Assembly: GCA_026025075.1 (NCBI GenBank) | Contig: JAPEUI010000023.1 | Location: 124,001 to 188,000 of the forward strand | Source: Vezdaea acicularis | Taxonomy: Eukaryota | Direction of reading: 5' to 3' | Length of the DNA stretch: 64,000 bases | In this document: positions 27,780 to 41,394 of the stretch, in pieces | Position numbering within the stretch: the first letter of the stretch is position 1 | How the letters are laid out: each line of letters starts with the position of its first letter | Notes under the pieces: model-generated | Database searches by the model: none | Seen by the model: the letters and a program-made list of their open reading frames with translations, nothing else | What the model was told of the DNA's origin: nothing | Program-made: the position numbers and the translations under genes

Positions 27780-29204
27780 GATTGAGATCCTTGCAAAGTC
27801 GTAAGCATCTGGAATCTTGTTAGAGTGCGGGAAAAGAGAAGTGCACAGTCGGAAAAATACTATGAGGTACAAAGCGCATACATGAAGGGAAGGGCCTGGC
27901 TAGAGGATCTCAGAAACAGTCTTTCATTCTTTATCATTAGACTCTATACTTTGTTTTTTTTTTCTTTTAAGACGCTCCTTTCGAATCATTAGGGCATTAT
28001 GCAAATCCGCTGCCTCGTTGACGTAATGATGCTGCCCCTTGAGCACTCGCTGTCCGCAATTTCTTCACCCATTCAAAGGTTTCCCCGCAACACTTTTTGC
28101 AGTGCAGCGATATCAAACTGCACCAATATGATATCCTAGCTACGTCTGATCATTGCCGATAAAACGTCACAGAAAGACGCGTTTATGATATTAAATCCAG
28201 ACACTACCCATGCGACGTTATACCTGGAGCATTTAGTGAGCCCCTTAGTACGCGGCAATGTGCGCGTCGGCAGTAATTCAAGGACTGTGACACCAGCTAC
28301 CGTACACACAATCTCAGCCCGTCCTCATTGGCAATACACTGTGGGAGCTTGCAGGCACATGGTTTTGTAGGTTTTGATTTTTTTCATGGGCTTAGTTATT
28401 GTGGGGGAACCCCTGCTTAATGCGCCATCAATTTTGTCTACAGCTTCGGAGGTTCACTAGGGCCCTTAACACGACAGGCTTTGCTAAGTTATGGTTCAAC
28501 ATATATTTGAGCAGGACCTGCTGTTGCAAGCCCGAAGCCTCGAGGCCGTGTACTCGTGAAGCTGAACCCTCAAAAGGTGGGCGAAGTCCCCCGCAGCCAA
28601 TCGAGGCGGAGACCGCTCGCTAAGGGAGGGCTGCGCCGAACACCTCCACCACCAAAACACCGACCCCACCCAATCGCAGTCCCTGCGCCTCGGGGATTTG
28701 TTCGACGAACGAGGCAAGCGATTCCAACGGCCCTCTCGCGCTCAGCTGCGCGCAGGGCGCGTCCTTCCTGGTCCTTTTCTTAGGATTAGGTTATGGCCTG
28801 CCTTGCGGTCCCGACTGTAGATGCGGTGTGTCTTATGCGGTGAAGGGCTAGGATATGGGCATTTGCCAGTGTGGGATACCCTTACTCAATGTTGCTATGC
28901 TCTGGACATGTTCTTTTCTGGGGACTGGAGCTTCCATTTTGTTACGAGATCGCATAGCTCCCATCTCTTAGGGCTAAGCCAACCCGCTAGCCTGCGGTTC
29001 ACTTTACATTGTATATGTACCATGGTAACGAAGATCACCTCAAGGTGCTCTCACGCTACTGTGATTTCTATCCCTTCAAGTTATCCATTGAGATGATCAT
29101 AAGGCCGCTTCTTGCACCAAGATCTATGCTTATTGAGTATAAGCATTGATATTGTTATTTCACCGTTCGTTACTATATATCTGTCTCCCGTTCCATCCGC
29201 AGCG

Positions 29205-29996
29205 ATGGCAACCATAGTCTCATCAGCAGCGTCGTCGGACGTTCTGACCGGCGCTTCTTCAACGCAGCAAACTGCCCCATCATCGACTGCAACATCAGGG
29301 CTGTCATCCTCGCCGCCGCCATCTTCATCCTCATCCCCGCTATCAGGGACGTCCTCTTCGCCATCTTCAAGCATCACTAGCAGCTCGACTTCAAGCGCAA
29401 CATCCTCCTCCTCAGCACAACGGAGCGGCATCTGCAGCACGCACGCATCATGCATCCCCGTCATAGTCTCAGTAGTAGTTATCGTCGTTGTAATCCTACT
29501 CGCCATAGCAGCCTACGTATGCGTTTCTCGGCGGCGTCGAAAGCTGCAAGAGGAAGTGTACTGGGCTCGCAGACGGCGTGACCGACGGTTATCAAACTCG
29601 TCCCCGCTTTTACAGGCACCGGATCGAACTCATTCGCCGCATTCTCATCGTTCTCATCATCATCACCGAGAGGAGAGTAGGGGGCGTGAGGGAGAGAAGT
29701 ATCTGAAGCCTTGGAGAGGCGAGGACATAGAGCTGGATGATGAGGGCTATCGCACCCCACGGGAGATGTCGAGGAGTCCGCCGCCAGAGTACGGAGCAAG
29801 AGAGAGAGAGGCAGAGCAAGAGAGGAGTAGGGGGCATTGCTGCAACGGAAATTGTGGTGGTGGTACGGGGTTCAACTGCGATTTTGGGGCGTGGCAGTGT
29901 GGGGAGTGTTGTGTGTGTCTTGGGGGTTGCTGTAGTAGTTTGGGGGATTGCTGTGGGAGTTGTGGTGACTGTGGGGGTTGTAGCTGCAGCTGCTAA
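29205..29996 (+). CDS. Single-pass membrane protein: Ser/Thr ectodomain, His patch, Cys-rich C-terminal tail
   Basis: Ser/Thr tract, TM IPVIVSVVVIVVVILLAIAAYVCV followed by SRRRRK, HSPHSHRSHHHH, and 17 Cys in the last 52 residues, ending CSC. Confidence 0.8.
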   Translation: MATIVSSAASSDVLTGASSTQQTAPSSTATSGLSSSPPPSSSSSPLSGTSSSPSSSITSSSTSSATSSSSAQRSGICSTHASCIPVIVSVVVIVVVILLAIAAYVCVSRRRRKLQEEVYWARRRRDRRLSNSSPLLQAPDRTHSPHSHRSHHHHREESRGREGEKYLKPWRGEDIELDDEGYRTPREMSRSPPPEYGAREREAEQERSRGHCCNGNCGGGTGFNCDFGAWQCGECCVCLGGCCSSLGDCCGSCGDCGGCSCSC

Positions 29997-30446
29997 AGGG
30001 TGGATCGCATCCGTCATTGTCATAGTGCCTTCGAGGTGGTAAAATAGGGGGTTGCCTGAGACTAGGGCCGGCGAAATAATCGTCGCTTGCTTTTAATCAC
30101 AAGTCATAATGTGACATGAAATGTAAAAGATCAAGTTACATATCAACAAGCTAAAGCTGAAGACGTAGATTACCAGAATGAAAAGGAAGACATGGTGACC
30201 GCCTGTTGCAGCATCGCATTGATTGCTACTTTCGCTAGGAGTCCAAGTTTCCCTCTCCCCTCTGCTTCGCAACCGCCATTAGACACATCAACCATCGACG
30301 CTCCATCACCAGCCTAATGAGAGTGCAACATGAGGATCGTCTATCGTAGGAATGCTCCCCCCATGCCAAACGACACCGGAGGGTTCGAAGGGCGCCGCCA
30401 TGCTACTTACGCCGTGTTGCCAATCTGATTTGTATTGTGTATCCAT

Positions 30447-31399
30447 CTAACAGCACCCGCCAGCAGCTCCTGATTGTACACCCTGTCCAGCACCAACTTG
30501 GACAGTTGGCTTGTTGTTGACTGTTGTGGTGCCCATCCGTTCTTTGATTTGCCGGGCCATGGTCAAGAAAGCTTGCTCGACATTTGATGCGTTCTTCGCT
30601 GAGGTCTCGAGGAAAGGGATGCCAATGCTGTCAGCAAATTCCTAGGTCGCGGCGTGTTAGCACAACCCTATACGTAGTATCCCCACATCAACCTTACTTT
30701 CGCTACGGTATACTCGACTTGCTTCTTATCCGACATATCACTCTTATTTCCTACGAGTAACTTATTCACACCTTCGGTAGCATAGCGATCGATCTCTTGC
30801 AGCCACTGCTTTACGCTGTTGAATGACTCCATATCCGTCACATCGTAGACAATGCAGATTCCATGAGCACCACGGTAATAGGATGAGGTGATGGTCCGGA
30901 ACCGTTCTTGACCCGCAGTGTCCCACTAGATAATGTCAGTAGCCGTGGTGGCGGAGCCAATTTAGCCGCAGAGCGAGCAAGAGCGACTCACGATTTGGAG
31001 CTTCACAGTCTTTCCATCTAACTCGATCGTTCGGATTTTCTGTCCCAACCTGTCAGCCTTACGTAGATACGTCCTACGTGTCGGGGCCCTACGAAATCAA
31101 CGCCGATTGTCGAGATATAGCTCTCGGTGTATGTGTCGTCAGCGAATCGAAGCAAAAGACATGACTTTCCTACACCGGAGTTTCCGATGAGGAGAAGCTT
31201 GAAGAGATAGTCGTATCTGTTGAGTAAAGACGTCAGCTCTGCGCCGCTCACGAAGGCCACTGTGGCTTGAATAGCCGCTTAGATATTCAAGTTTGATAAT
31301 TAAGCTAACTCTACAGATGGAGAAAGAGTCAGCAAGACGATCTAATCACATGTTGCCTAAAGGTAATTCTTCAAAGGATACGCACCACTCAGGATTCAT
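30447..31399 (-). CDS. YPT1: Rab1/Ypt1 small GTPase
   Basis: [51 protein letters not shown]-terminal GGCC*. Four intron positions. Confidence 0.97.
31217..31388 (-). other. Nested spliceosomal twin intron (stwintron, [D3,4]) in ypt1
   Basis: GA|GTG[GTGCGT..GCTGAC..TAG]AGT..GCTGAC..CAG|ATAC. The internal intron is 31385-31311 (75 nt); its removal creates the donor GTGAGT of a 97-nt external intron. Confidence 0.8.
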
Positions 31400-31998
31400 T
31401 ATGCTTGGTGGACAAAGGCGATGGCAAGTTTTGATGTAGATCTGAGCAGAGCTGGACTAGGTAGTTAAAGGAAGAAAAGGGATTTAGGGAAGCCTGAGGA
31501 GTTGATGAAGCAGGGGATTCAACGTGAATATGATGTGAATGTTGTAACTGTGAGAAAGTATGTTAATGGGCGTCAGTCGCCTTAGCGATTCAATGGCGGC
31601 GTTTGGCGCCACTAAACCCCTTTGGGATCACCAGCGAACCACGGCGTTCAACTATGTTTTCGCATCTAGTGGGGTAGAGAAGTATGGGCTTGATGCGCGA
31701 TTCGGGATGACTCCGCTGTCTTTTGGGGAGTGTATGAAGGTTCTATGGGGCGCTTTGTTGGTCCAAGATGTTCTTTTGTTTACGGCGCAAGCCCCGTGCG
31801 CAAAGGTTCAAACGGAAGCTGCACGCTACTGATCCTTAAATTAGGGACATCCGACCCCGCCAAATGTTTTGGTCCGAGCCATTGTTCACAACAAGCTTGC
31901 CCTAGGTTTCTTCGTGCAAGTAATTTGCTCCGCCCGGTTGTGACTTTTTGTCTCAACACCATTTCATAGCTTTCACCATCTTGCCCGCTAGAGGGTCC

Positions 31999-34900
31999 AT
32001 GAGCATGGCAACTTATGATCGAGATGTCCTGCCGGACACGTAAGTCAACTTGGGTGAAAAGTGATGGCAGCAGTTCATGATATGAGCGTTATAAATCATT
32101 CTGCAGCCTAGACTTAGTATTACCCTCTCAGGTTAGGGTTTGTGTTGACTCAAATACTAGGGTTAAGCCAACGAATTATGCAATTGACTTATTTGATGTG
32201 GAGCTTGGCGGAGCGTTCAGCTACAAAGGCTTCGTCAAGATTGATCTCAAGATCACGAAGGGGACCAATGAAGTTGTACTGAATGCGATAGATCTCAAAA
32301 TCCATGATGCTATGGTCCAAGTCGAACATACCAAAAGTAGGTCCACACACCCTTTCGAAGCATTGGAGCGGCACTCCTGTGCCACCACGTCCCGCAGTAG
32401 TCAGATACCACATGGAGGATCCCAGAGACTCTTCTCCTTTGCGAGATAGGCGCGCTCCTCAAGCTCTATCTCGGTCACTGGACTCAGAAGGTGGTCGAGT
32501 TCGTTGGCTCTGGGAAATGGCGGCTTCTCTGAGGGCGTTCAAAACCTGGATGCATCCCCAGAATGGAATCGATGAGATACGATTCTGGCTGCCAAAGGAT
32601 TATCACTGCCAAGGCGGGGCGTGGTGGCCTGCAAGCCTCATACATTTGGTGTGAAGCTTGACGCAAAAGAAGCTTATGTGCTCTGCAGCTCAGGAAACCT
32701 TCAAGGCATCAGAGATCAAGCATGACGAGAAGACTCAGCGAGTCCATCTAGTCTTCCCAGGGCAGCTTCCTGTATCTAATGGAAGTCTGTCCATTAATTT
32801 CACCGGGACGATCAATAATTCTATGGTAGGGTTTTACAGGTCAAAATACAAGCCTGTAGCCCCTCCTGTAGCATCTGTCCCAAAAGATGGTGACTCTCAC
32901 GTCATGTTTAGCACTCAGTTCGAGTCATCAGATGCTCGACGGGCCTTCCCTTGCTTTGATGAGCCAAACTTGAAGGCCACATTTGAGGTCACCATAGAAA
33001 TTCCACAAGATCAAGTTGCATTGAGCAATATGCCAGAGAAAGTCACCAAAGATGCCAAGAAGGCGGGTTTTAAGGTCGTAACATTTGAGAAAACTCCGAT
33101 TATGTCCACATATCTGTTGGCATGGGCTTTTGGTGATTTCGAATATGTTGAAGACTTCACGAGGCGAAAGTACAACGGCAAAAGTTTACCAGTTCGCGTA
33201 TATACGACCAAGGGCCTTAAAGAGCAAGGGAAGTTCGCCTTAGAGAATGCTCATCAGATTGTTGACTACTTCTCGGAGGTTTTTCGTATTGATTATCCGC
33301 TTCCAAAGGTAGACCTCCTAGCGGTACATGAATTCTCTCACGGTGCTATGGAGAATTGGGGCTTGATCACTTATCGAACAACGGCGGTGCTCTATGATGA
33401 AGCTGCATCTGATGAACGCTACAAGAATAGGGTTGCCTACGTGGTAGCCCATGGTGAGTATTGATCATCTGGACTCATGTAATCGAGTGCTCACTATTTT
33501 TAGAGCTTGCACATCAATGGTTTGGAAACCTCGTTACAATGGATTGGTAAGTCGGGAACACTATTTGAGAGCGCTCTCAAATCTGATGGTCGCAGGTGGA
33601 GTGAGCTATGGCTGAACGAAGGCTTTGCAACATGGGTGGGGTGGCTAGCAATTGATCACCTCTTTCCCCACTGGAATGTATGGGGGCAATTTATCGTACG
33701 TCGGAAATCGCGAGGCAAGCTTTTCTCATCCCAGAGCTGACTGGCGTTATAGACTGGAGGTTACGAAACAGCCTTCCAACTGGACTCATTACGAGGCTCT
33801 CATCCCATTGAAGTGCCGGTGAAGGATGCCCTCGAAATCGATCAGATCTTCGATCATATAAGCTATTTCAAGGGCAGCTCAGTTATTCGCATGCTTAGTG
33901 CTCATCTTGGAGAGGAGACATTCCTGCTTGGTGTCTCGAATTATTTAAAAACACATAAATATGGTAACGCTACAACGACTGATCTTTGGGCCGCCCTCAG
34001 TGATGCGTCAAAGCAAAACGTCAATGAGCTAATGGACAACTGGATAAGGAAAATTGGCTTCCCTGTCGTGACGGTGGCCGAAGAGCCTGGCCAGATAACG
34101 GTCCGACAGTCCCGGTTTCTCTCCACAGGTGACGTAGAGCCTCAAGAAGATCAAACTCTGTGGTGGATCCCCCTTGGGCTTCACCTTGGTGAAGAGGGTT
34201 CTAAGGGGCCGGCAGAAGTGCTCACCATAAAGGAAAATACGATTCGAGGGATCGATGACACTTTCTACAAGCTGAACGCCGGTCAGACTGGGTTTTATAG
34301 GACAAATTATCCCGCAGCGCGACTAGCTAAACTCGGGGCCATGAAGGACAAGCTCACAGTGGAGGACAAAATCGGTCTCATCGGCGACGCTGCCGCTCTG
34401 GCCTTGGCAGGTGAGGGAACCACAACCGGCCTGCTCGCATTCATCGAAGGCTTCTCGACCGAATCGAGCTACTTGGTCTGGTCACAAATCACCTCCTCCC
34501 TCGCCAACGTGCGCTCCATCTTCGCCGACGACGCCAAAGTAGCCGCCGGCCTCAAAAAGTTCACCCTCAAGCTCGTGACCCCCGCCGTCGAGAAAATCGG
34601 ATGGGAATTCCACCCTCACGACGACTTCCTGACCGGCCAACTCCGCGCCCTGCTCATCAACACCGCCGGCACCGCCGGCCACGAGGGCGTCATCTCCGAA
34701 GCCCAGCGCCGCTTCAAGTCCTACACGACCGGCGCCGACAAGCAAGCCATCCACCCCAACCTGCGCCTCGCCATCTTCCGCACCGTCATCGCCCACGGCG
34801 ACCGCGCCGAGTACGACGCCGTCAAGAATGAATACCTGCACACCACCTCCGTCGACGGCAAAGAGATCTGCCTCGCCTCCCTCGGCCGCGTCCAGTCCCC

Positions 34901-35282
34901 CACCCTACTTGACGACTTCCTCGACTTCGCCTTCTCCCCCGCCGTTTCCCCCCAAGACCTGCACACCTGCGGCGCCGCTTTGGCCCGCAACCCCTCCACG
35001 CGTCTCGGTCAATGGGAATATCTAAAAGCGCACTGGGACGCCGTCCACGCGAAACTAGGACACCCCCCGACCGTCCTCGACCGCTTTTTGAAATTCAGTC
35101 TGAATCAATTCGCCTCTTTTGAGCTCGAGCAGGACATTGCTACTTTCTTCGCGGATAAAGATACGAGAGCCTATGACCGCGGTCTCGCCGTCATCGCCGA
35201 TTCCGTCCGCGCCAATGCCCGGTATAGGGCTAGGGACGCCGGCGTTGTCGAGGAATGGCTCGCCGCGCATGGGTATTTGTGA
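31999..35282 (+). CDS. M1-family aminopeptidase (Ape2/puromycin-sensitive type)
   Basis: TQFESSDARRAFPCFDEP, GAMENWGL, spliced [40 protein letters not shown]. Five introns. Confidence 0.96.
32350..32647 (+). ncRNA. Candidate intron-encoded H/ACA snoRNA or other structured RNA
   Basis: Lies in a 352-nt intron (32337-32688). Stems CCCAGAG/CTCTGGG and CGAGATAG/CTATCTCG, H-box-like ATACGA at 32577-32582, a 3' hairpin, and ACA at 32642-32644 just upstream of the branch region. The 5' end is uncertain. Confidence 0.45.
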
Positions 35283-35941: not shown

Positions 35942-38900
35942 TCACGTCCTATACAACCGAATCACACTGACCACCTCGCGTCTACAAACGGGACAACTCC
36001 CGACCTGACGCGCACAAGCGAGACAAGCACACATATGCCCACACTCATTGAAGACAGCATTCATCTCCTCCTCATAGCAGATGGAACAAGTATCCATTTC
36101 CTCGTCGGCAACCTCATAATGCATAGTTCCGCGGCCAAAGCGCTTATCCTTCTTGAAGCCGCCAAGATAAAAGTTGCCCGTCTTCTTGAAAGAGAATTTT
36201 CCCTGGCCGTGCATGTAGCCGTCGGCCCAGTCGCCGTCGTAGACGTCGCCGTTGGCAAAGGTCATGACGCCGCGCCCGTGCCGCGCGTCCGAGGCGAACC
36301 ATCCGCTGTAGACGTCGCCGTTGACGTAGATGTGCGTCCCGGCGCCGTGGAGGCGCCCGTTGATCACAGAGCCGGTGTAGGATTCGCCGCCGAAGAAGGA
36401 GGTCGTGTAGCTGGGCCGCGCGATGCGGTCGGGGAAGTTCGCCTTGAGTGCGAGGTATTCGAGGTACTCTGCGGGCGTGGCAGCCGTGCCGCGTTCCTGC
36501 ATGCGACGCTGGCTGTGGCATGGAATCAGTCTGGGATTGTCAAGGGGGGTGTTTGGGGAAAAGGGGGGTGGGTCGGCAACGTACTCGTCTTCTGAGACTT
36601 TAGGGGCGAATATGATGATGACCCCTGCGACAAGACCTTCTTGCTGGAAGGTACGGTTCATGCTGATGGGGCGGGCTTCGCCGAGCTTGACTTCTTCCCA
36701 CAGTGAACACTCGTTGGCGACACGACCGTCACGGAAGACGAGCTTGGAGATCACGGTGGTGACGGGGCAGCTGACGCAGAGGACGCCTTTGAGCGTTTGG
36801 GTGGCCGGGTCAAATTCTTTGAAGAGGGCATGGATTATGGCGGGCTTGGGAGGTTCAACGACTGGGGCTGGTGGAGGGGGCATGGTGAAGGGTGGTGGTG
36901 CCTCTGTGCGAGCCATCTCGGGCGGTGGTGGAGGAGGCGCGGCGTCCTCTTGTGTGCCGCCCATTTCCGTGTCTCCATCCGCAGGGGGAGCAGGTGCAGC
37001 CAGCTCTAGTGGTGTAATCGCACTGTTGACGATATCGTTGACCACCGCAGTCACAACCTCTGTCGCGGAGGCTTCACTCATCACGACGTCCTCGCTGGGT
37101 GTTTCGTCTGGGGTAGCGGCCACTTGTTGCACCTGTTCTATTGGCTCCGCTGCTGGGGGTTGCTCACTTGGCTCCTCCGATTGAGGCGCCTCTGCCATCG
37201 GTTGATCCAGTTCCGGGGGCGGAGCTTGTTCAGAAGCGGGCTCTGGGACGGGCTCAGGACCGGGCTCTCTAGCAGCCTCTGCTGGTGGAACCTCGACCTT
37301 GACTTCTGGTTTCTCAGGCTTTTCGATATCTAGTTTAAGAACATGAGACCACAGTTGGATGGTGGGGTACTTGCGCCTGATCTTTGCAATAGACAAAGAA
37401 TCATATAGAAGCTTGCGAGGTCGATCATTAATCATAAGCCATAGTTGGATTTGCTCATCTTCTTTTAGACCGGGATCTCGTCGACGAAGCTCTTTGTTGA
37501 GATCACCCACGGTCGACTTGGGTCCCATCTCTAGGCTGAGGACAGAATCAGCCGCCGGAAGATTGCCAACGTCAAGCACCCCAGCTCCTGTATAGCTGCA
37601 GAATTCTGAAGCTCTAACGACCTTCACCGGGATGGGTTGGTCGCGATCTGTTGGCGTTGAGTCACCAACCCCGGCTTCAGTACCTGTCTTGGGGGTCTCC
37701 GCTACTTCCATGGCATCAGGCGTCTCCTTGTGTTTGGTCGGCTCTTCTGGCGTGCCCTTCAGGACCTCTCCAATGACATCACTTCGGACATACATGACAA
37801 TGTATGCAACCTTGTCTGAGCCGGACGACTTAGACGCGGAGCCGCCTTGATTGGCTTCCATTGCCTTCTTCTTCGTCAATGCAACGACTTTTCCGTTATT
37901 CCTCTCGTCCATGTACGTGATCCATTTGGTTCCTGGCCCGCTTGGACGAAGCACAGGTTGATAATTTCCAGATCGAAGGTGGCCTTCGTGTGAGATGAAT
38001 CCATAGAGAGTATATTGGGAGTTTACCCCGGTGGCATCGTCTGCTACCCATTTGTCCAGTTCAAGAGTTTCGCTTAGATCCAATTTCCTACTAAGCTTAA
38101 CCCACTTCCTCTCGACCTCGTCGAATTTTTGACGTCTCAATTCGATCGTTAAGAATTTGGGAAGTTCTTGCTTGATAGCATACGTCTTCGGGAGAGCACT
38201 CTCAAGCGCTCCCTGTATATCCTTGAAATCTCCCTCGACCGGTACTTGACATACATCTTGAAGTTGATACCCAGGGAGACTTTGCTCCTTAGAGGAAGAA
38301 GCCGACGGGCTTTCGTGGAAGAACAAGAATTTGTTCAAGTCCAAAGTCCCCTCATTCTCACATTCATGAATTAGCTTGCGTCGGAGGATGGTCCAGAATT
38401 CCATCACGTCCATCTTATCACTAAGCTTGATCCCATACGACTCCATCGCGTCTACAAAGCCTCGAAGGGATATTGTATAGTTAGGCGGATTGTCTTTGGT
38501 GTTGAGGTTGTGGATGAGAGTTTGGAGGGCGGAGAAGATTGGTCTTCTTGGCCCGAGGGGGAATTTCTTTGCGTCGACCTGGGGAGGGTTATAGATGAAG
38601 TCCCGGAAAGGCGTAAGTAGCAGCCAGCTCGATAGGCCAGCTACGATATATCCCCGCCCAGTACCTTCGGACCCTAAACCACGAAGGCCAGTCTTTGCCA
38701 AGCTGTTCCACTCACTTTCTGAAGGATGGTCCCAGAGTGCTTTGGTCTCGTCCTTGACCGTACGAACATAAGCAGTGAACGCGAGCGTGTCGTTGCGAAG
38801 TAGTGCCTGACGCTGGCCTCTAAACCGCTTGTGAATCTCGTTATGCGGTCCGTGGAAGCGAGTCCAGCCCCAATCGGGTGCGACGGCGCAGAACAAATGA

Positions 38901-40378
38901 TGGTTTCCATGACATACACTGACTCGAGGCTCGGCTGGGTTGTACAAGACAACGCCGAACTGAGCGGCGGTACCCCAGCTGTGATCGATCTTGTTCAAAT
39001 CTGGGGAAGGTGACGGATCATCATCAGTCTCATCCGACATGTCGTCGTCATCGTCTAGAATCTCATCGTCCTCTTCACCATCATTCGCTTCGTCAGCTGG
39101 AGGTGGAGGCGGGGGTGGTGCCTGGCCTTCTGCGAGAGCGCTAATCACATTGGCGGTCAGGATTGGCGGGGCGGCGGCAGGTGCAGGTACAAAAGCTTCT
39201 GGCGCAGATGGTTGCTTGGTTGAAGGCTTCTCTTCGGGCTCGTCCCCCAGCGGGGTGCCAGGTTTATTACACTCGAGGTAGATACTAATCTGTGAGGTAT
39301 TATTGCCTTTGGGATAGTACTTGATGTTCCAATCCAAATCTCCGATTCTCACTGGAGGAGATCGCATCACACGTTCCTTATTTGGATTCTTCCATGTGCC
39401 GTGCACGCCTTTGACCACCCAGTCGATACGGCCGGTTGCTGATGGTACATATTCGGGGTCGTCGAGCTCCTTGAAGAACCGCTTCTCGTAGTACGCATGG
39501 TCAAGGGCGTTCTTCTCGTTCGATGCCTCAATCTCCTTGAGCTCCTCCTCATCAGGCGAAGAAGTGTCCTCCTTGATCTCAACCCGGTCTTCATCGTCCT
39601 CATCGTCTGAAGTCGAGTTTTCCGACGCTGGATACTGGATAGGAGCGGGCGGAGGAACGGCTGCATCAGCCAGAGGTGGTTGAGGTATTGGGTCTAATTC
39701 AGGCTGTGGCGGTTGAGGTATTGGGTCTAATTCAGGCTGTGGCATTTGAGGTATTGGGTCTAACTCAGGCGGTGGCGGTTGGGGTGTTAGGTCTAACCAA
39801 AGCTCGGACTGCGGTTGAGGTTCATCGATCGCTGGTTGTACCGCACCTGTTGGAGTATCGGGGACATGCCAAAAACTGGCACCCGTCGCCCCCGTTCCAT
39901 CCATGACTCCTGAGGGCGTCACTGGGGCCGGCTGCTCGGTCACCGGCTCTGGAGAATTTGGGGGCTCAGGATCCGGAGGGGTGGAATTTTCAAGACCATT
40001 GGTTTGATCGGGAGGTGGCTGATCGGGGGCTGTATCCATCGCCTCGCCATCCTGCTGCCGGACTTCTGGAGTCTCTTCCGCAGGCTCTGGAGCAATAGCA
40101 TGTCCATTCGGCAGGCTTTCCTCCGTCTCCATGTGTTGCTCCTGCTCTGCAGGTTGAGGTTGCAGTGCTGGCTCCGGCTCAGGTAGTGAGGCCGCCGAAG
40201 CGCTAAGATCCATTTCCACGGGCGGTGCGGGTGAGGAAGGAGCGTCCGGTGGATCTTGCGTGTGTTGTGAAAGATGGCGGGGGGAAGACATTTGAGGTTC
40301 AGGATTTATGGGTGTCGGTGGACGCGGACCGAACAGTAACGGCGGTGGCTCGATCTGTGAGCTGGTTGCGACGTCCAT
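35942..40378 (-). CDS. MATH + USP-like (degenerate) + MORN repeats + C-terminal RING protein
   Basis: WNIKYYPKGN...DWGWTRF (MATH); LPKFLTIELRRQKFD and YTLYGFISHEG (USP fold); YxGxxxxxxxHGxG repeats (MORN); CSICYEE..VFNECGHMCACLACA....CPVCR (C3HC4). In-frame intron at ~36511-36583. Confidence 0.9.
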   Translation of the reverse strand: MDVATSSQIEPPPLLFGPRPPTPINPEPQMSSPRHLSQHTQDPPDAPSSPAPPVEMDLSASAASLPEPEPALQPQPAEQEQHMETEESLPNGHAIAPEPAEETPEVRQQDGEAMDTAPDQPPPDQTNGLENSTPPDPEPPNSPEPVTEQPAPVTPSGVMDGTGATGASFWHVPDTPTGAVQPAIDEPQPQSELWLDLTPQPPPPELDPIPQMPQPELDPIPQPPQPELDPIPQPPLADAAVPPPAPIQYPASENSTSDDEDDEDRVEIKEDTSSPDEEELKEIEASNEKNALDHAYYEKRFFKELDDPEYVPSATGRIDWVVKGVHGTWKNPNKERVMRSPPVRIGDLDWNIKYYPKGNNTSQISIYLECNKPGTPLGDEPEEKPSTKQPSAPEAFVPAPAAAPPILTANVISALAEGQAPPPPPPPADEANDGEEDDEILDDDDDMSDETDDDPSPSPDLNKIDHSWGTAAQFGVVLYNPAEPRVSVCHGNHHLFCAVAPDWGWTRFHGPHNEIHKRFRGQRQALLRNDTLAFTAYVRTVKDETKALWDHPSESEWNSLAKTGLRGLGSEGTGRGYIVAGLSSWLLLTPFRDFIYNPPQVDAKKFPLGPRRPIFSALQTLIHNLNTKDNPPNYTISLRGFVDAMESYGIKLSDKMDVMEFWTILRRKLIHECENEGTLDLNKFLFFHESPSASSSKEQSLPGYQLQDVCQVPVEGDFKDIQGALESALPKTYAIKQELPKFLTIELRRQKFDEVERKWVKLSRKLDLSETLELDKWVADDATGVNSQYTLYGFISHEGHLRSGNYQPVLRPSGPGTKWITYMDERNNGKVVALTKKKAMEANQGGSASKSSGSDKVAYIVMYVRSDVIGEVLKGTPEEPTKHKETPDAMEVAETPKTGTEAGVGDSTPTDRDQPIPVKVVRASEFCSYTGAGVLDVGNLPAADSVLSLEMGPKSTVGDLNKELRRRDPGLKEDEQIQLWLMINDRPRKLLYDSLSIAKIRRKYPTIQLWSHVLKLDIEKPEKPEVKVEVPPAEAAREPGPEPVPEPASEQAPPPELDQPMAEAPQSEEPSEQPPAAEPIEQVQQVAATPDETPSEDVVMSEASATEVVTAVVNDIVNSAITPLELAAPAPPADGDTEMGGTQEDAAPPPPPPEMARTEAPPPFTMPPPPAPVVEPPKPAIIHALFKEFDPATQTLKGVLCVSCPVTTVISKLVFRDGRVANECSLWEEVKLGEARPISMNRTFQQEGLVAGVIIIFAPKVSEDEYVADPPPFSPNTPLDNPRLIPCHSQRRMQERGTAATPAEYLEYLALKANFPDRIARPSYTTSFFGGESYTGSVINGRLHGAGTHIYVNGDVYSGWFASDARHGRGVMTFANGDVYDGDWADGYMHGQGKFSFKKTGNFYLGGFKKDKRFGRGTMHYEVADEEMDTCSICYEEEMNAVFNECGHMCACLACARQVGSCPVCRREVVSVIRLYRT
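39678..39797. repeat. 33-bp coding tandem repeat x ~3.5 (PQPELDPIPQP)
   Basis: GGTTGAGGTATTGGGTCTAATTCAGGCTGTGGC repeated in tandem. Confidence 0.9.
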
Positions 40379-41394
40379 CTCAACGGGACGCGGGGACAGT
40401 GAATACGATTGTCCGATGGCAAATTCGAAAGTGAAGATTCGGAATGATGAGTAAAAGGGCGAACGGGGGAAAAGAAAGCGGATGCTGTTTGATCCAGGCG
40501 GTGAGACGGCAGCACGGTTTTATGCAGTGGCTGTCAGGTACAAGCTTGCCTATCGCCGAGAGCTAGCCGATTATGAATATCAAAAGTGCACCGAGCTCGG
40601 AGGCGAGAGGGCGGTGGTCTGGCTCCGCGGTGCATGAACTGAAGTGGAAGTCAACGCCCGCGATGCAGGAATGCAGCAAACGTGATGTTGATGAGATATC
40701 AATGAGGTTGATTGGGGTGGGAAGGATGGAGAGGGAGGAGGAGGAGGAGGAGGAGGAAAGAAGTGGAGCTGGTGAGAGAGCGCAGGCGTCGAGAGGTGAT
40801 TCAGGCTTCCGTTTATCCCCTTCGCGCGGTGACTAGGACGCCGCAGAGCTACAAGGCTGCCGCAGCCGCAGATCGATGCAGCCTACGGTAGAGGACGAAA
40901 GGGCCCGCTTGGACGACGCAGCTTACGCACAGACAAAGGAGCGCTCGACTACGGGTGCATTGACGTCCGTGACCAGGACCAGCGTGTTTGTTCGAAACAT
41001 CGCACTTTGCACAAATTATCTACAGATGGTTTCTTGGGGGGCAGTCAAGAACAGCGGTGGAAGGCGGTGGGCGTCTCCATACATCGGGAGGCTTCGCATG
41101 CTGGCCAGACCCTTTCGTCGTTGGCGCTTTAGCTACGGCGGCCGAGTGCCTTCGCCCCATTCTTCGGTGGCTCCGACTGGCTCCATCCACAGCCGCGACC
41201 GCGACCGCCGACCCCCCATCAGCGTCGCGCGACGAGGGACGAACCCTGACCGACGCCCTGACCATTCATCCCCCCCGTCCAGAGCCCCCCAACCGAATAC
41301 TGCCGCAATGAGGCTCAGTTCCGGCTGGGGAGAGCCCCAGGCAGCAGCTGCGGAAGATGTAGGAAGAGATAGTACTGTGATGGCAATGGCAGCA

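Follow-up and report, generated by a model that had tools for sequence, protein, structure and literature searches.

We identified, in the first intron of ypt1 in a 64,000-nucleotide (nt) stretch of the Vezdaea acicularis genome (contig JAPEUI010000023.1, positions 124,001 to 188,000 of the forward strand; the whole stretch is called the window here, and positions are counted from its first letter), an arrangement in which one complete intron lies inside the splice donor of another. Judged by its sequence signals and their conservation in relatives, ypt1 intron 1 is very probably a donor-disrupted spliceosomal twin intron (stwintron) of type [D3,4], in which the internal intron separates the third from the fourth nucleotide of the external donor, and which would be removed from the inside out by two U2-type reactions. 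On this reading, ypt1 intron 1 adds a [D3,4] split to a class of complex introns already known with splits at other positions. The gene itself occupies the minus strand from 31399 to 30447 and has five exons; the product predicted by joining them at the borders listed below is a 201-residue Ypt1/Rab1 GTPase (MNPEYDYLFK...GGCC).

31389-31399, minus strand: ypt1 coding exon 1, ATGAATCCTGA (Met-Asn-Pro-Gl.., phase 2), with the ATG at 31399-31397
31388-31217, minus strand: ypt1 intron 1, 172 nt, opening GTGGTGCGT
31386-31388, minus strand: GTG, the 5′ half of the split donor of the external intron
31311-31385, minus strand: internal intron, 75 nt, with donor GTGCGT at 31385-31380
31333-31328, minus strand: internal branch element GCTGAC, its A at 31329, 18 nt before the acceptor G
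31313-31311, minus strand: internal acceptor TAG, with no other AG between branch and acceptor
31308-31310, minus strand: AGT, the 3′ half of the split donor (GTG + AGT = GTGAGT)
31217-31310, minus strand: remaining external intron, 94 nt (97 nt with the GTG)
31237-31232, minus strand: external branch element GCTGAC, its A at 31233, 16 nt before the acceptor G
31219-31217, minus strand: external acceptor CAG
31093-31216, minus strand: ypt1 exon 2 (A TAC GAC ... GVDF)
31092-31040, minus strand: ypt1 intron 2, 53 nt, donor GTAGGG
31039-30992, minus strand: ypt1 exon 3
30991-30926, minus strand: ypt1 intron 3, 66 nt, donor GTGAGT
30925-30698, minus strand: ypt1 exon 4
30697-30642, minus strand: ypt1 intron 4, 56 nt, donor GTAAGG
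30641-30447, minus strand: ypt1 exon 5, with the stop codon

Taking out the internal 75 nt converts the non-consensus GTGGTG of the window into a GTGAGT donor, and each of the two units, internal and external, has a donor, a branch element 16-18 nt from its acceptor, and an acceptor that is the first AG past the branch. We compared this layout with the ypt1 genes of relatives, for which metagenome contigs were searched with the translated last exon and 80 loci of 338 relatives were kept. Exon 2 is present in 65 of the 80 loci (15 are without it on the stretch examined), and 47 loci have a complete intron 1 behind ATG-NNN-CCN-GA; removal of six near-duplicates that are more than 85% alike (L005, L009, L030, L043, L058, and L062) left a set of 42 introns, the window included. 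Four further loci (L015, L048, L059, and L064) are cut within intron 1, with the internal YAG/AGT still visible; three (L010, L031, and L051) are too short to classify at intron 1; and three (L057, L073, and L080) have a different N-terminus and no intron at the intron 1 site. For parsing we used the consensus of the stwintron authors as worded in their papers' main text (donor GURWGY, branch RYURAY/DYURAY, acceptor YAG/HAG; PMC12403724, PMC7138796), and the strict form of the parse required GURWGY, RYURAY with the branch A 8-40 nt before the internal YAG, and both units of at least 45 nt. Chance expectation was taken from 300 dinucleotide-preserving shuffles per intron. The strict [D3,4] parse is found in 35 of the 42 introns, vs. 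0.83 expected from the shuffles; a relaxed pattern, GTR/[GTRNGY..branch..YAG]/NGY, is found in 41 of the 42, vs. 4.8 expected.

The nine bases at the start of the 41 [D3,4] introns are G (41), T (41), R (A 25, G 15, C 1), G (41), T (41), a sixth base (A 29, G 11, T 1), N, G (41), and a ninth base (T 34, C 4, A 3), so that the four G/T positions and the G at +8 are invariant. The internal acceptor is CAG in 34 sequences and TAG in seven, and the three bases past it are A in 36/41, G in 41/41, and T 33, C 7, or A 1. A branch element is kept in all 41, with an internal branch-acceptor distance of 8-28 nt (median 15). Across the 42 loci, the donors rebuilt by removing the internal unit are GTAAGT (15), GTGAGT (12), GTAAGC (5), GTATGT (3), GTGAGC (2), and five others seen once each. 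Outside these signals the intron bodies have median pairwise identities of 0.48 for the inner unit (0.47 after shuffling) and 0.49 for the outer unit (0.49 after shuffling; 861 pairs each), and no conserved element beyond the splice signals was seen in the bodies of the 41 sequences. Since the bodies have fallen to background similarity, the split donor and the signals at the 3′ end of the internal unit are held by selection and not by recent shared descent. Our recheck of the minus strand found the intron 1 coordinates and lengths of the earlier note on this DNA to be correct throughout, and its reading of the intron as a [D3,4] stwintron gains strong support from the comparison, with the layout kept in 41 of 42 loci and the rest of the intron diverged to background. 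The earlier note had proposed the alignment across relatives as a check, and GTR/[GTRNGY...YAG]/NGY is what that alignment displays. It had also left room for a different first exon that supplies MNPE; ATG-NNN-CCN-GA stands immediately 5′ of intron 1 in 48/48 complete sequences (the 47 loci and the window), and no other first exon takes that role.

Two observations concern individual loci. In L041 the first triplet is GTC, and its rebuilt donor, GTCAGT, is the sole one below the control minimum defined in the next paragraph. In L035, L038, L040, and L041 the position-2 intron (after GVDF) is absent and the twin structure of intron 1 is kept; ordinary ypt1 introns have been lost in some lineages, and the nested intron has not.

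Ordinary introns of the same gene provided the standard for donor strength: the second- and third-position ypt1 introns of those 42 loci served as controls (n = 80), and a donor scoring matrix was built from their donors. All 80 control donors have G at +5, and the control introns have a median length of 57 nt (49-108). The genomic outer donor is without the +5 G throughout the [D3,4] sequences. In the window, GTGGTG mismatches GURWGY at +4, +5, and +6 and scores -5.2 bits, against a control minimum of 2.1, which bears out the earlier remark that this donor is non-consensus and places it under all 80 controls; the inner donor GTGCGT scores 7.8 bits (control median 8.2), and the rebuilt GTGAGT 6.5 bits. 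Over the whole set, the genomic outer donor falls below the control minimum in 41/42 loci, the inner donor in 0/42, and the rebuilt donor in 1/42. Length separates intron 1 from the controls as well: its median is 179 nt (145-313), with an inner unit of 87.5 and an outer unit of 99.5, about three times the control length, and the two units of the window, at 75 and 97 nt, are each inside the control range.

These signals suggest the following course of splicing, in which the order of the two steps is what we infer. Under intron definition, U1 would recognise GTGCGT (from 31385), and the nearest branch (A at 31329) and acceptor (TAG, ending at 31311) would define the 75-nt internal intron, which would then be excised. 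Ligation would make GA/GTGAGT, and this donor would be paired with the branch A at 31233 and the CAG ending at 31217; removal of the remaining 97 nt would join GA to A-TAC and yield MNPEYDYLFK. Most likely this is an old structure frozen by selection, and not a regulator. The gene is essential, and without any one of the internal sites the intron would no longer be removed correctly. It is also the 5′-most intron, behind an 11-nt coding exon, and its loss via reverse-transcribed mRNA should be rare.

The mature junction GA-ATAC is required by the protein start MNPEYDYLFK, and RNA from relatives agrees with it. A search of RNA runs returned two, X1 and X2, with 5-6% of the words. X1, labelled as lichen metagenome RNA, gave a 205-nt contig that has three other letters and skips intron 4 (56 nt). 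X2 represents relatives (40 of its 43 contigs are less than 90% alike), and its contigs skip introns 2 and 3 (53 and 66 nt) at the predicted borders. Five X2 contigs stop fitting at 31216, and their loose end, reverse-complemented, reads ...ATGAATCCCGA. In addition, eight loci (L022, L034, L039, L052, L060, L066, L075, and L077) have uninterrupted open reading frames (ORFs) of 200-204 residues on contigs of 1.2-2.1 kb, and these intron-free loci are most likely transcripts. In all eight, ATGAAYCCNGA is followed directly by ATACGA, and the same is found in the five X2 contigs. For relatives, then, the X2 contigs support both the mature junction and the border of exon 2.

Several points weigh against two-step removal of a [D3,4] stwintron, or narrow what the comparison can carry. 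The RNA runs speak to the mature junction in relatives: at 80% likeness X1 and X2 have no coverage of 31240-31900, and no read of this organism falls on exon 1 or intron 1. The inner donor of the window, GTGCGT, has C at +4 and therefore fails a strict GURWGY (C at +4 is also found in 40/80 control donors). The strict parse fails in 7/42 introns (L001, L007, L023, L041, L045, L050, and L053), for reasons that include the branch motif in L001 and the rebuilt donors of L007 and L045 (GTGGGT and GTAGGT), L023 (GTAAGA), L041 (GTCAGT), and L050 (GTACGT). The relatives are metagenome contigs that share descent, and the taxonomic breadth described below is read solely from the likeness of a 64-residue exon to named proteins. 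Lastly, L053 departs from the layout and could be either an ordinary intron, its donor being GTGTGA (2.9 bits), or a [D2,3] form. The intron 1 of this divergent locus is 286 nt long and opens GTGTGAGT rather than GTRGTRNGY; parsed as [D2,3] it reads GT/[GTGAGT..CAG]/ATGT, which rebuilds GTATGT, and the internal intron may have shifted by one base here, or the locus may retain the ancestral state.

In one genome, chance intron-like signals within an ordinary long intron could produce such a picture: when the body of the window intron was shuffled 20,000 times, its first nine and last 45 nt kept in place, 475 of the shuffles (2.4%) contained a strict nested parse, and a genome with thousands of introns would be expected to hold a few such cases. 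We regard this explanation as scarcely credible, given that the layout is kept in 35 (strict) and 41 (relaxed) of the 42 loci where 0.83 and 4.8 were expected, and that a scan of both strands of the 64-kb window for the full strict pattern hits ypt1 intron 1 and nothing else, with no hit in 30 shuffled windows; conservation in relatives puts the aligned layout far beyond chance. One-step removal deserves more attention, since the outer unit begins with a real GT and cutting at GA/GT is compatible with the sequence. Here U1 would bind GTGCGT 3 nt downstream, the catalytic spliceosome would pick the upstream GT, and 172 nt would be cut at GA/GTGGTG with the internal branch and acceptor unused. 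The upstream GT is the one used by the mature junction, every locus has a strong U1 site at a distance of 3 nt, and no intermediate was seen, in runs without coverage of this organism's exon 1 or intron 1. One-step removal nevertheless leaves several things unexplained: the branch element that precedes the internal YAG by 8-28 nt (median 15) in 41/41, the NG after that YAG in 41/41 (AG in 36) amid unconserved sequence, and an intron 1 of about three times the normal length. It also calls for a splice site without the +5 G that is found in 80/80 control donors, and we consider it improbable.

The earlier note drew attention to a stop codon as a built-in device against mis-splicing. In the window, both removal of the inner intron alone and joining of the inner donor to the distal CAG do read MNPE followed by a stop, and none of the AGs listed for the window intron restores the frame for the inner donor. 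The predicted intermediate carries an immediate stop in 36/41 relatives (the stop is absent where the rebuilt donor is GTATGT, GTACGT, GTGGGT, or GTCAGT), and the product joining the inner donor to the distal acceptor carries one in 40/41 relatives; in L041 this product would stay in frame, gaining one residue. Any phase-2 intron that opens GTRA reads NNG TRA, however, so the stop follows from the donor consensus: the two truncated products stand as described, and a special device does not. The control point coupled to nonsense-mediated decay that the earlier note suggested is not supported. A fuller version of the idea would have the inner donor choose between the near acceptor, which is productive, and the far acceptor, which leads to the truncated product, and in this way set the level of Ypt1 through nonsense-mediated decay. 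The far-acceptor stop in the window and in 40/41 relatives is in its favour, as is one-step mis-splicing of this kind in [D1,2] stwintrons, reported in the main text of PMC12403724. The stop is automatic from phase 2 and GTR, and is lost in L041 with its GTC; and the intron bodies have no conserved element besides the splice signals. We hold the proposal to be very improbable. Equally speculative, and in our view still a long shot, is the wider proposal that filamentous ascomycetes inherited the ypt1 [D3,4] stwintron from their common ancestor, that it is not just an accident frozen in place, and that acceptor competition tunes the dose of this endoplasmic reticulum-Golgi Rab by splicing or growth state; if true, it would amount to conserved regulated unproductive splicing built from a twin intron.

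Other readings of intron 1 were tried and set aside. Recursive-splicing ratchet points of Drosophila and vertebrates have the form YAG/GTRAGT, and the upstream exon is spliced to them. They resemble the ypt1 case in that a long intron is removed stepwise and the first ligation restores a donor; in ypt1, by contrast, the first step would be excision of a self-contained internal intron. A ratchet point was rejected: AGTTAG comes after the internal TAG of the window, and in none of the 41 loci does the internal YAG run straight into a GT. Tandem GYNGYN donors are alternative 5′ splice sites 3 nt apart that give two in-frame isoforms, and ypt1 likewise has two GTs 3 nt apart at the exon end. This candidate was rejected because the downstream donor joined to the CAG at 31217 reads MNPE and a stop (with a stop in 40/41 relatives as well) and because the internal acceptor is present and conserved. 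Another candidate for the internal acceptor, at 31239 (GCAG/AGC), was rejected too; it would leave an outer unit of only 25 nt with no branch site. No Rfam family matched 30300-31800 at E values up to 1, so a small RNA (for example, a small nucleolar RNA) does not explain the length of intron 1. The first three donor bases equal the next three in 22/41 loci, and since about 22 are expected from base counts, there is no trace of donor duplication.

Whole Ypt1 is too conserved for placing the loci, and taxonomic breadth was therefore judged by comparing the C-terminal exon (64 residues) with named proteins. Many layout-bearing loci are nearest Lecanoromycetes (95-100%); others are nearest Leotiomycetes (L013, L028, L033, and L036), Dothideomycetes (L014, L019, and L055), or Sordariales (L044-L050 and L054). 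L025 is Hypocreales-like, L024 is Glomerellales/Xylariales-like, L046 is nearest Aspergillus (98%), and the more divergent loci L027 and L048 also have the layout. These matches, a weak basis for assignment, suggest that the layout spans several classes of filamentous ascomycetes, among which the ypt1 twin intron appears to be old and widespread. By the C-terminal exon and the RNA runs, the window itself would probably belong to a lichen-forming lecanoromycete.

The layout of ypt1 intron 1 fits the definition of [D] stwintrons and their inside-out excision, as set out in the main text of earlier papers (PMC7138796, PMC5639578), on which the comparisons that follow also draw. The closest case is the [D5,6] stwintron of rtnA, a gene for a reticulon-like protein, which is found across nine classes of Pezizomycotina and was described as the most ancient known (PMC6616335). 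Both are donor-disrupted, are the 5′-most intron of their gene, and have an outer unit that opens with GT, and the rtnA units of Aspergillus nidulans, at 75 + 76 nt, are similar in size to those of ypt1. They differ in the position of the split (between donor nucleotides 5 and 6 in rtnA, 3 and 4 in ypt1) and in setting, since the rtnA stwintron lies in a poorly conserved, disordered N-terminal region and that of ypt1 after the 11th coding base of a highly conserved essential GTPase. The rtnA intermediate was shown by reverse transcription polymerase chain reaction (PMC6616335); that of ypt1 is predicted from sequence. The [D2,3] stwintron of bioDA (Sordariomycetes) and the [D1,2] stwintron of lipS (Leotiomyceta) are, like that of ypt1, class-wide and in conserved genes, with a different split position, and their evolutionary stability was put down to the failure of correct removal once an internal site is lost (PMC5639578). 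The outer unit of a [D1,2] stwintron has no genomic GT start, and its one-step removal leaves a frameshift (PMC5639578), whereas ypt1 has an upstream GT. The [D4,5] stwintron of Lipomyces lipofer rtn is, like ypt1, a rare donor split other than [D1,2]; it is split one base further 3′, belongs to one yeast species, and is not widely conserved (PMC7138796). The stwintronisation model, in which part of the donor is duplicated and a long host intron gains internal 3′ sites (PMC7138796), could explain GTR-GTRNGY in ypt1.

Demonstrated types in these papers are [D1,2], [D2,3], [D4,5], [D5,6], and [A2,3]; according to the main text of the 2025 report, almost all known stwintrons are [D1,2], and other types are rarely met (PMC12403724). 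We found no [D3,4] type and no ypt1 twin intron in the searchable literature, in which the string "[D3,4]" itself is not searchable and whose supplements were not opened; the terms ypt, GTPase, and (in part of the papers) Rab have no occurrences in the main text of the stwintron papers searched. Type [D3,4] is thus likely, though not certainly, absent from print.

Some further observations concern the gene models and the neighbouring genes, which are unremarkable. Only 8 of 98 public ypt1 protein models (P0023-P0120) start with MNPEYDYLFK, a count that includes many fragments from metagenome gene callers and gives no error rate; 19 of the 98 read through the 3′ end of the intron (..R-YDYLFK), and several ypt1 models of lichen fungi are fused to a neighbouring gene (394-662 residues). 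The ypt1 twin intron may help explain wrong N-termini in public gene models. The P-loop in the window reads GNSGVGKS (codon AAC, 31180-31182, minus strand), whereas it has D (GDSGVGKS) in 67/67 metagenome loci with the motif, and nine of nine X2 contigs give D at 31182; this single-base difference is a species-specific change or an assembly error. Ypt1 of baker's yeast likewise has N at that residue. Divergent from ypt1 on the plus strand is an M1 aminopeptidase gene (32081-35282; Peptidase_M1_N, Peptidase_M1, and ERAP1_C domains, in at least three ORF pieces), which starts near 32081, about 680 nt from the ypt1 ATG. Beyond it lies a 1525-residue ORF on the minus strand (35942-40519) with UCH, MATH, USP7-binding, MORN, and RING domains. 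Downstream of ypt1, on the other strand, a 297-residue open frame (29103-29996, plus strand) is Ser/Thr-rich with a Cys/Gly-rich end and has no Pfam match.

Stwintrons serve as models for the origin, persistence, and loss of spliceosomal introns, and with a [D3,4] case the donor position now missing would be filled. The real upstream GT would make ypt1 a clean test of whether the spliceosome is ever able to use a donor without the +5 G in the presence of a strong one at a distance of 3 nt. The host gene is among the best-conserved and best-studied essential genes of fungi, and obligatory two-step splicing of its first intron could be tested in model moulds, with lethality or slow growth as the read-out. 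Should the suggested breadth be true in named genomes, ypt1 would hold a second very old and widely conserved stwintron.

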